From the IMG/VR virus record IMGVR_UViG_3300013741_000057: a DNA stretch of 6,001 bases; one strand, written 5' to 3'. Positions 4,829-5,643 of this stretch are shown piece after piece (within the stretch, counting starts at the first letter, position 1; each line of letters opens with the position of its first letter). Under the pieces are notes generated by a model. It saw only the letters and a program-made list of their open reading frames with translations, searched no databases and was not told the DNA's origin. The stretch is from a virus. Lineage: Duplodnaviria > Heunggongvirae > Uroviricota > Caudoviricetes. A program made the translations under genes and the position numbers.

Positions 4829-5317
4829 ATGAGTCTTTTGAATGAAGTTCAGAAATTCATTGAAGCCCATCCGGGGTGTACTTCCGGAGACATTGCGGAT
4901 GCTTTTGCAGGTTACTCACGGCAGCGCGTTCTGCAGTCAGCAAGCAAGTTACGTCAGAGTGGGCGTGTGGCTCACCGTTGTGAAGGAGATACACGCAGAC
5001 ATTTCCCGCGCCTGACTGATAGAGCGCAGGAGCCGGAACCACAACCAGTTCGTGAAACCAGACCTGTGCGCAATTTCTATGTCAGCACTAACGCCCCGGG
5101 GGAGATTTTGTGCCTGACCCGCCAGGCTGAAGAACTGGAGTCAAGGGGCTTATACCGTCGTGCTGCAACGGTGTGGATGGCGGCATTCCGTGAAAGTCAC
5201 TCCCAGCCAGAACGAAACAACTTTCTGGCGCGTCGTGAGCTGTGCTTACGGAAAAGCAGCAAGCGCGCTGTATCGGGTGATGAATGGTATCTGTCAGGGA
5301 ATTACGTGGGGGCTTAA
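4829..5317 (+). CDS. PerC/Pch-like (ANR-type) transcriptional regulator with an extra N-terminal domain
   Basis: ATG at 4829 with a G-rich RBS; an upstream GTG at 4823 is an alternative start. The C-terminal segment AEELESRGLYRRAATVWMAAFRESHSQPERNNFLARRELCLR matches the PerC-family pattern as I recall it. The N-terminal 80 aa look like a separate winged-helix-like domain. The stop overlaps the next start (TAATG). Confidence 0.6.
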   Translation: MSLLNEVQKFIEAHPGCTSGDIADAFAGYSRQRVLQSASKLRQSGRVAHRCEGDTRRHFPRLTDRAQEPEPQPVRETRPVRNFYVSTNAPGEILCLTRQAEELESRGLYRRAATVWMAAFRESHSQPERNNFLARRELCLRKSSKRAVSGDEWYLSGNYVGA

Positions 5318-5643
5318 TGACGACGTTAACTCAATGCCAGCAGCAGGTGCTGGATATGCTGATTTCTTACCAGCAAGAACGTGGCTTTCCGCCAACCAAT
5401 CAGGAGGTGGCAACCATGCTGGGATACCGTTCGGTGAATGCAGCGGTGGAGCATCTTCGCGCACTGGAGAAAAAAGGCGTCATCACGATAAAGCGTGGCG
5501 TGGCCCGGGGGATAACGCTTCATACCGCGGTGAAGGACGACGACAGCGAGGCGGTCGGAATTATCCGCTCACTGCTTGCCGGTGAGGAAAATGCCAGGCT
5601 GTGTGCAGCCCACTGGTTACATGAGAGGGGCATGAAAGTATGA
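5317..5643 (+). CDS. LexA N-terminal DNA-binding-domain paralog lacking the S24 peptidase domain (108 aa)
   Basis: The translation MTTLTQCQQQVLDMLISYQQERGFPPTNQEVATMLGYRSVNAAVEHLRALEKKGVITIKRGVARGITLH aligns without gaps to the E. coli LexA N-terminus, with roughly half the positions identical by eye and the recognition-helix residues (RS-NAA-EH) conserved. The 40-aa C-terminal tail has no Ala-Gly/Ser/Lys protease module. RBS GTGGGGG 5 nt before the ATG. Confidence 0.85.
   Translation: MTTLTQCQQQVLDMLISYQQERGFPPTNQEVATMLGYRSVNAAVEHLRALEKKGVITIKRGVARGITLHTAVKDDDSEAVGIIRSLLAGEENARLCAAHWLHERGMKV

Follow-up and report, generated by a model that had tools for sequence, protein, structure and literature searches.

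What does a bacteriophage do with the DNA-binding head of LexA when the self-cleaving domain of LexA is missing? This question is raised by a small gene located at positions 5317–5643 of a 6,001-nucleotide (nt) stretch of Caudoviricetes DNA (IMG/VR virus record IMGVR_UViG_3300013741_000057), which is referred to here as the window. In this study, we report that the 108-amino-acid (aa) product of the gene is, with near certainty, a LexA-type winged-helix DNA-binding domain without protease, and we weigh what such a protein may do during the SOS response of its host. The features of the gene are the following:

5317–5643 (stop codon included), plus strand: LexA-head-only gene of the SfV orf42 / PHROG 362 family, from the list of open reading frames (ORFs) and the sequence
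5317–5520, plus strand: winged helix-turn-helix, residues 1–68, from the AlphaFold2 model and Foldseek
5536–5625, plus strand: two-helix, family-specific tail, residues 74–103, from the AlphaFold2 model and the alignment

Identity and fold of the LexA-head protein

The sequence at 5317–5643 is an intact ORF of 108 codons. The LexA_DNA_bind model (PF01726) was matched over its whole length (positions 1–65 of 65) by residues 1–65, with an E-value of 2.6e-19 and 69.2 bits (cutoff 23.7), which bears out the LexA N-terminal-type domain that the original prediction, made from the letters of the window, had placed here. BLASTP against Escherichia coli LexA gave 43% identity over residues 1–90 (LexA 1–86; E 8e-22), and phmmer against the LexA chains of the PDB gave an E-value of about 1e-15. 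Judged from these alignments, the similarity to the LexA head is far beyond chance. The protein is nevertheless not LexA proper, as the LexA equivalog model TIGR00498 scored 70.4 bits against a cutoff of 110.95 and was covered only at profile positions 1–91 of 203.

The AlphaFold2 model, built from 25 family members (mean predicted local distance difference test score of 82.6), places helices at residues 6–22, 28–35, and 40–52, the last being the recognition helix SVNAAVEHLRAL, and wing strands at residues 56–58 and 66–68, with the RGI motif. When compared by Foldseek, the modeled head superposed on 3jso_B, the LexA chain of a LexA-DNA crystal, with a root-mean-square deviation of 0.9 Å over 68 columns and 50% identity, so that the predicted structure also agreed with the proposed domain. 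Foldseek searches also returned many phage proteins of 66–80 aa consisting of a LexA head alone. Of the earlier statement that the first 70 residues are LexA-like and that the recognition helix is conserved, the first part stood, while the second holds for similarity and not for identity (SVNAAVEHLRAL in the window protein vs. SPNAAEEHLKAL in LexA).

No match to Peptidase_S24 (PF00717) was found in the 108-aa protein, which is too short to contain such a domain, whereas the cI product of the same window, used as positive control, was matched with an E-value of 1.3e-26. The predicted lack of an S24 domain was thus confirmed. It must be considered, however, that the HMMER and BLASTP alignments with LexA extend through residue 90 and set A88-G89-E90, within an Ala-Gly-like LLAGEE, against A84-G85-E86 of LexA (VAAGEP). 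This would favor a cleavable decoy or substrate, cut in trans at LLAG/EE by an S24 protease (host LexA, CI, or UmuD) or titrating RecA filaments. Against this explanation, close relatives carry LLANEE (G89N) or LLVGEE (A88V), and Ala-Gly is missing altogether from wider relatives. The equivalent change in LexA, G85D, blocks cleavage, the structure 1JHF being that of LexA G85D. In addition, the segment is predicted by AlphaFold2 to be helical and not the strand-loop of LexA. LLAGEE was rejected as a conserved cleavage site, on the grounds of its variants and of the wider relatives, and we consider the decoy highly improbable. With no S24 domain and no conserved Ala-Gly site, LexA-style self-cleavage is, as read from the sequence, impossible for this protein, in agreement with what had been anticipated.

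The C-terminal tail

Following a low-confidence acidic linker at residues 71–73, the AlphaFold2 model predicts two tail helices, at residues 74–87 and 93–103. The tail quoted in the original prediction is present in the 108-aa protein, and the conserved pattern of the family, (I/L)(I/L)RxLL ... A..A..(W/F/Y/L)L...G, is followed by it. Residues 82, 83, 86, 87, 97, 100, and 101 were hydrophobic in all 14 aligned sequences (39–94% identity). No tail-specific match was obtained in a Pfam scan, in a PDB sequence profile search, or with Foldseek against PDB and BFVD.

A hairpin of some 30 residues in which so many positions stay hydrophobic suggests an interface. The tail would serve for homodimerization or for contact with a partner, and we favor homodimerization, which would stand in for the dimerization supplied to LexA by its S24 domain. 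Three further proteins (P0133, P0154, and P0162), of 140–165 aa, were found to contain two tandem LexA DNA-binding domains and no S24 domain. Their architecture is consistent with a single head needing a second copy, and it looks like another way of meeting that need.

A common phage family under purifying selection

A 551-base-pair (bp) stretch comprising the LexA-head gene and both of its junctions was present in 2294 of the 5426 complete E. coli genomes (about 42%), nearly always on the chromosome and labeled as "LexA family transcriptional regulator," the name also borne by the RefSeq homolog WP_032330024.1. Intact copies were found in the genomes of the isolated phages SfV (orf42), SfII, SfIV, mEp460, mEp390, cdtI, and Ayreon, and the phages converting to Shiga toxin (Stx) types Stx2a, Stx2c, and Stx2k carry the intact gene as well. 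A scan of one genome per species returned only five loci with search patterns that were too narrow; the diversity of lineages was sampled by scans of viral contigs with distant relatives as queries.

The window protein aligned with the PHROG 362 profile over residues 1–108 (profile 1–106 of 106; E 2.5e-58). Members of PHROG 362 include SfV orf42, mEp460 gp46, mEp390 gp43, and the SfII "LexA DNA binding domain protein"; they share size, tail, and position upstream of rusA with the window protein, and nothing structural differs. The label of this group, "transcriptional repressor," is an annotation rather than the result of an experiment. In a comparison of Stx phages the family is listed solely as a pfam01726 gene family, pham 237, in 15 phages (PMC8136144), and our search of the literature on the function of the enterobacterial family returned catalog mentions of this kind and no functional study. 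The novelty implied by the original prediction therefore did not hold: the protein is already catalogued, as a member of a very common phage family annotated for more than 20 years (SfV orf42).

The frequency of the gene bears on a further possibility, namely that it is a functionless remnant left by the decay of a full-length gene of LexA-like or CI-like type. The end of the LexA homology near the cleavage site would fit a remnant, as would the few singleton truncated or fused variants present in databases. However, the ratios of non-synonymous to synonymous substitutions (dN/dS; Nei-Gojobori), calculated between the E. coli, Salmonella, and Citrobacter copies, were 0.11–0.19 overall, 0.04–0.12 for the DNA-binding head, and 0.18–0.41 for the tail, so that both parts show, at sequence level, purifying selection. 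Intact 108-aa proteins represent the large homolog clusters, which have 2527, 782, and 374 members. Relatives at 40–47% identity (e.g., mEp390 gp43, P0124–P0126, P0137, P0163, P0189, P0221, and P0235) keep the length and a recognizable tail. No S24-coding sequence can follow the gene directly because rusA overlaps its stop codon, and in 120 of the 120 close homologs among the matches listed PF01726 was found alone, with S24 in none; a decayed lexA with an S24 domain downstream, which would have contradicted the proposal, was thus not what the homologs showed. The selection, the intact clusters, and the conserved length and tail effectively refute the remnant.

Recognition helix and candidate operators

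As given in PMC13416735, which cites Knegtel 1995, LexA contacts DNA through S39, N41, A42, E44, and E45. The window protein has S39, N41, A42, V44, and E45 at these positions, i.e., four of the five are kept, together with the invariant RGI wing. Compared with the N-terminal domain of E. coli LexA (1LEA, 3JSO), it shows the same winged helix-turn-helix and differs by E44 to V, P40 to V, and K48 to R, and by having, where LexA has the linker and the S24 domain, a conserved tail of two helices. In diverged lineages the usual helix is SPNAAAEHLK, vs. SPNAAEEHLK in LexA, and the sole consistent change is the loss of the acidic residue 44. Recognition of CTGT-type half-sites by the window protein is plausible on this comparison, although it would not be constant across the family. 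In Citrobacter (loci L013 and L007, gene at 5001–5321), a copy with 63–65% identity and the same synteny has the helix SVNTIAGHLRAL (A42T, A43I, and E45G), which suggests that the DNA specificity shifts within the family.

Potential operators in the window were scored with a LexA matrix. The site at 2776–2791, which the original prediction had named as a target, has a perfect CTGT-N8-ACAG core and lies 30 nt upstream of a DUF4222 gene, yet it scored 7.6 bits; no promoter-like match was found near it, and its Citrobacter counterpart, CTGTAACCACAG, is a palindrome with a 4-bp spacer (N4). It was rejected as an operator on these three counts. CTGT-N8-ACAG sites with one mismatch were no more frequent in the window than in shuffled sequence. 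The best match in the window was AATTGATTATAAATCCAGTT at 915–934, with 15.3 bits (the weakest of 21 known boxes has 12.9). This box has an 80-aa ORF on one side and the 3′ end of cI on the other, and a few related loci have it in the equivalent position.

The early operon and the probable timing of expression

Other features of the window are needed to consider when the protein would be made:

1116–1790, minus strand: CI-type prophage repressor of 224 aa with S24 self-cleaving domain (PF00717, E 1.3e-26)
4823–5317, plus strand: PerC-family (yfdN-like) regulator, upstream operon neighbor (PF06069, E 1.6e-9; RefSeq annotation)
5315–5319, plus strand: TAATG, overlap of the PerC-like gene stop and the LexA-head gene start, read from the sequence
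5640–5643, plus strand: ATGA, overlap of the LexA-head gene stop and the rusA start, read from the sequence
5640–6001, plus strand: RusA Holliday-junction resolvase, downstream operon neighbor, running off the window (PF05866, E 3e-15)

The ATG at 5317 shares one base with the TAA stop codon of the PerC-like gene, the TGA stop codon of the LexA-head gene overlaps the ATG of rusA, and a G-rich, Shine-Dalgarno-like run is present at 5307–5311. The start/stop overlaps on both sides show translational coupling in a rightward early operon, and the coupled operon beside rusA described in the original prediction was in this way recovered. The window as a whole is the early region of a lambdoid prophage, with the order S24 cI (minus strand), YdaS/Cro-like, CII (CP76/YmfL), Rha antirepressor module, 74-aa ORF, HTH_36/DnaD_N replication protein, PerC-family, LexA-head, and RusA, all genes from the cro-like one through rusA being on the plus strand. 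In the near-identical chromosomal locus L001, RusA is followed by KilA-N, DUF968/HNH, and Q. The dam gene, often located between perC and the LexA-head gene in the family, is absent from the window locus. No promoter-like or plus-strand terminator-like match was found between 3600 and 6001, so that the LexA-head gene is most simply part of the rightward early operon, which would be switched on upon inactivation of CI by RecA-stimulated cleavage.

The position of the gene is fixed in the lambdoid map. It lies 3′ of the replication genes, and in all lineages sampled it is followed by RusA or a 67-aa ORF, optionally KilA-N/Ant, DUF968/HNH, and Q. It was followed by rusA at 0 nt throughout the 84 E. 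coli-type prophage and viral-contig loci surveyed, with a single exception, a locus with a broken match in a genome that has two copies. The distance was also 0 nt in the complete SfV and mEp460 genomes and in the mEp390 and L134 lineages, 18–267 nt in further lineages, and 10 nt in L016.

This arrangement could indicate a DNA-targeting or accessory factor for the neighboring RusA and DUF968/HNH products rather than a transcription factor. In favor of such a role, beyond the start/stop overlap with rusA in the window, RusA proteins of two subtypes are encoded directly or within 267 nt 3′ of the gene in lineages down to about 40% identity, and over the same range of identity a DUF968/HNH-nuclease-like gene (8667–9656 in L001) lies about 2 kb or less downstream, just before Q, in nearly every lineage. 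Nevertheless, an unrelated 67-aa ORF takes the place of RusA in Klebsiella-type lineages, the order of the lambdoid nin region is kept by inheritance of modules whatever the function, and a LexA head is a reader of sequence-specific operators. Moreover, RusA acts alone, as a dimer. We regard the accessory role as improbable.

Two side observations were made on the window. Runs of ten N (masked or unknown bases) are present at 509–518 and 3622–3631, the second interrupting rha. The homologous stretch of 2673–3701 is annotated in RefSeq as one long "Rha family" coding sequence, although the Rha domain starts only near 3339; upstream of it are the small DUF4222/phrog_1343 gene (2822–3001), a match to the Hfq-binding RNA isrK (3033–3109, 67.9 bits), and a match to C4 antisense RNA (3134–3221, 83.6 bits). 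The region looks like an antirepressor control module of the P1 immI type (c4-ant) or of the Gifsy-1 isrK type lying beneath an over-extended coding sequence.

SOS-response context in related phages

In Klebsiella-type phages, dinI, a 101-aa ORF, and the LexA-head gene are located on the same strand behind one near-consensus SOS-box promoter, which precedes dinI and consists of TTGACC, a 17-nt spacer, and TATACT, overlapping TACTGTTTATTTATACAGTA (L112 4297–4345; also L105–L123 and L003). Such a group resembles a set of genes induced by the SOS response; its known member, DinI, damps that response. In the L100 lineage, an SOS box stands between a hairpin resembling a terminator, with its T run, and an 82-aa ORF, which the LexA-head gene follows, and in Edwardsiella phage EPP-1 a 25-bit box lies 764 nt upstream of the gene. 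The 1 kb upstream of the gene, 9.5% of the sequence scanned, held 26 of the 60 strong boxes of the non-E. coli-type loci, a proportion that is no formal statistic since these loci are interrelated. DNA damage would therefore govern expression in every lineage, through host LexA where there is an SOS box and through the cleavable CI in the lineage of the window.

In carrier phages, dinI and a methylase gene immediately 3′ of Q are also marked by perfect N8 boxes. The boxes of interest in these phages are TACTGTAAAAATAAACAGTG (methylase) and TACTGTTTTTACATACAGTA. The strong box TACTGTAAAAATAAACAGTG coincides with the start annotated for an N6/N4 DNA methyltransferase gene that lies just 3′ of Q, where the toxin genes are located in Stx phages; it was found at 34170–34189 in SfV (L010), at 41021–41040 in mEp460 (L011), and in about 25 of the 84 E. 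coli-type loci. Separate SOS-modulator accessory genes were observed in mEp460 (22993–23306) and mEp390 (L012; 20396–20730 and 20988–21308), namely dinI, preceded by one perfect SOS box or by two, and, in mEp390, also a gene for a UmuD-like protein.

Proposed mechanism and alternatives

Four of the five LexA contacts are kept, and an SOS-box promoter, often with dinI, precedes the gene elsewhere; on this basis our best guess is a small phage transcription factor that binds SOS-like operators and is insensitive to RecA. We give even chances to the mechanism taken in full, a judgment that does not extend to the identity of the protein. The uncleavable SOS-box binder of the original prediction, a sensible hypothesis, is plausible. 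In the window, the protein would be made only after derepression of the prophage via RecA-stimulated cleavage of the S24-type CI (1116–1790), that is, at the moment when host LexA is destroyed. It would dimerize via its tail and then bind CTGT-type (SOS-box-like) operators, and RecA could not inactivate it, given the missing catalytic domain and conserved Ala-Gly site. The most likely effect would be that LexA-type promoters are silenced again during lytic growth; the targets could be accessory genes of the phage (dinI, the methylase, and the antirepressor, for example) and perhaps also host SOS genes or the LexA-controlled antirepressors of rival prophages.

A LexA-like head which appears as LexA disappears and which is RecA-proof would most simply be a stand-in occupant of LexA-type operators. 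In its stronger form, this proposal holds that lambdoid phages of Enterobacterales produce such a protein just when host LexA is lost, some by derepression of the early operon and others by way of an SOS-box promoter belonging to the gene, along with DinI. The protein would dimerize by the new two-helix tail, occupy the SOS boxes anew, and turn off the SOS regulon from within, so that host SOS genes fall silent, as do any antirepressors, colicins, or defenses of rivals that LexA controls. We put this stronger form forward tentatively, as possible rather than probable.

Several observations weigh against SOS boxes as the targets. No tail-bearing relative retains E44, which gives way to V, A, F, T, L, or Y, and within the same host order some lineages also alter A42 and E45 (Citrobacter SVNTIAGHLR, L112 SPNAVALHLR, and L136 SPNAAASHLK). 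Such helix changes are hard to square with a family-wide reading of an invariant host SOS box. The window has no good SOS box, the best being that of 15.3 bits at 915, and it must be noted that the matrix used for scoring derives from 21 SOS boxes of E. coli, which themselves score 12.9–27 bits. Carrier phages showed no enrichment of CTGT...ACAG palindromes with a spacing other than N8, and their enrichment in N8 sites is explicable by host LexA alone. Finally, the sole phage LexA-head-only protein that has been studied, gp6 of the Bacillus tectivirus GIL01, binds a different palindrome of its own, GaCACAnnTGTGaC, rather than the LexA box, at the late promoter P3, which it activates (Fornelos et al., 2018; PMC6182141).

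This precedent leads to the explanation that the head has drifted to a phage-specific, non-SOS operator and activates or represses one phage promoter (e.g., one in the nin/Q/late region), leaving the host SOS response unaffected. Position 44, always changed, and positions 42, 43, and 45, which vary between Enterobacterales-type phage lineages, would fit a dedicated regulator of this kind, as would the conserved location of the gene just upstream of the DUF968-Q block. On the other hand, palindrome scans of carrier phages yielded no candidate non-SOS palindrome, and the lack of enrichment of any spacing other than N8 counts here as well. In most lineages the recognition helix is one residue from that of LexA, late-gene control is already supplied by Q in these phages, and the analogy with gp6, which has no sequence similarity, is architectural only. 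We consider a dedicated regulator less likely than the RecA-insensitive binder of SOS-like operators.

Comparison with known systems

GIL01 gp6 and the window protein are both phage LexA DNA-binding domains without S24. In addition, gp6 is expressed after DNA damage as part of an early operon, and it acts on a phage genome that also bears boxes of host LexA; both can be counted as further likenesses. They differ in that gp6 has 66 aa and no helical tail, and in that the tectivirus has no CI repressor and no Q; furthermore, binding to a non-LexA palindrome and activation are demonstrated for gp6, while for the window protein binding to SOS-like operators is proposed. BLASTP between the two gave no alignment at E ≤ 100, which points to independent captures of a host LexA head.

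The closest counterpart in the host is the LexA(1–84) self-cleavage fragment, which is likewise a LexA head without dimerizing or catalytic domain. This fragment ends in VAA and is reportedly removed by ClpXP (Neher et al., 2003). The window protein ends in KV instead, so it may persist. DinI and PsiB, small SOS-damping proteins of phages and plasmids, may have a purpose in common with it, the limiting of the SOS response from a mobile element. However, DinI acts on the RecA filament and not on DNA operators, and it is unrelated to the window protein in sequence and fold.

Implications for the SOS response

The SOS response governs mutagenesis, prophage induction, the release of Shiga toxin, and the tolerance to DNA-damaging antibiotics, and it hinges on a cleavable LexA. 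An uncleavable LexA head encoded by a phage would be a simple route for a mobile element to rewrite this response. The presence of the gene in so many complete E. coli genomes, as well as in Stx2-converting phages, makes the question of whether SOS-type promoters are silenced again one that matters. With gp6, an activator with its own site, as precedent, either outcome is conceivable for the enterobacterial family. If only one phage promoter is regulated, the protein would be a routine addition to the lambdoid accessory regulators. If, instead, it is a RecA-proof stand-in for LexA, it would be a widespread and unrecognized modifier of SOS mutagenesis, of cross-induction between prophages, and of the response to DNA-damaging antibiotics.

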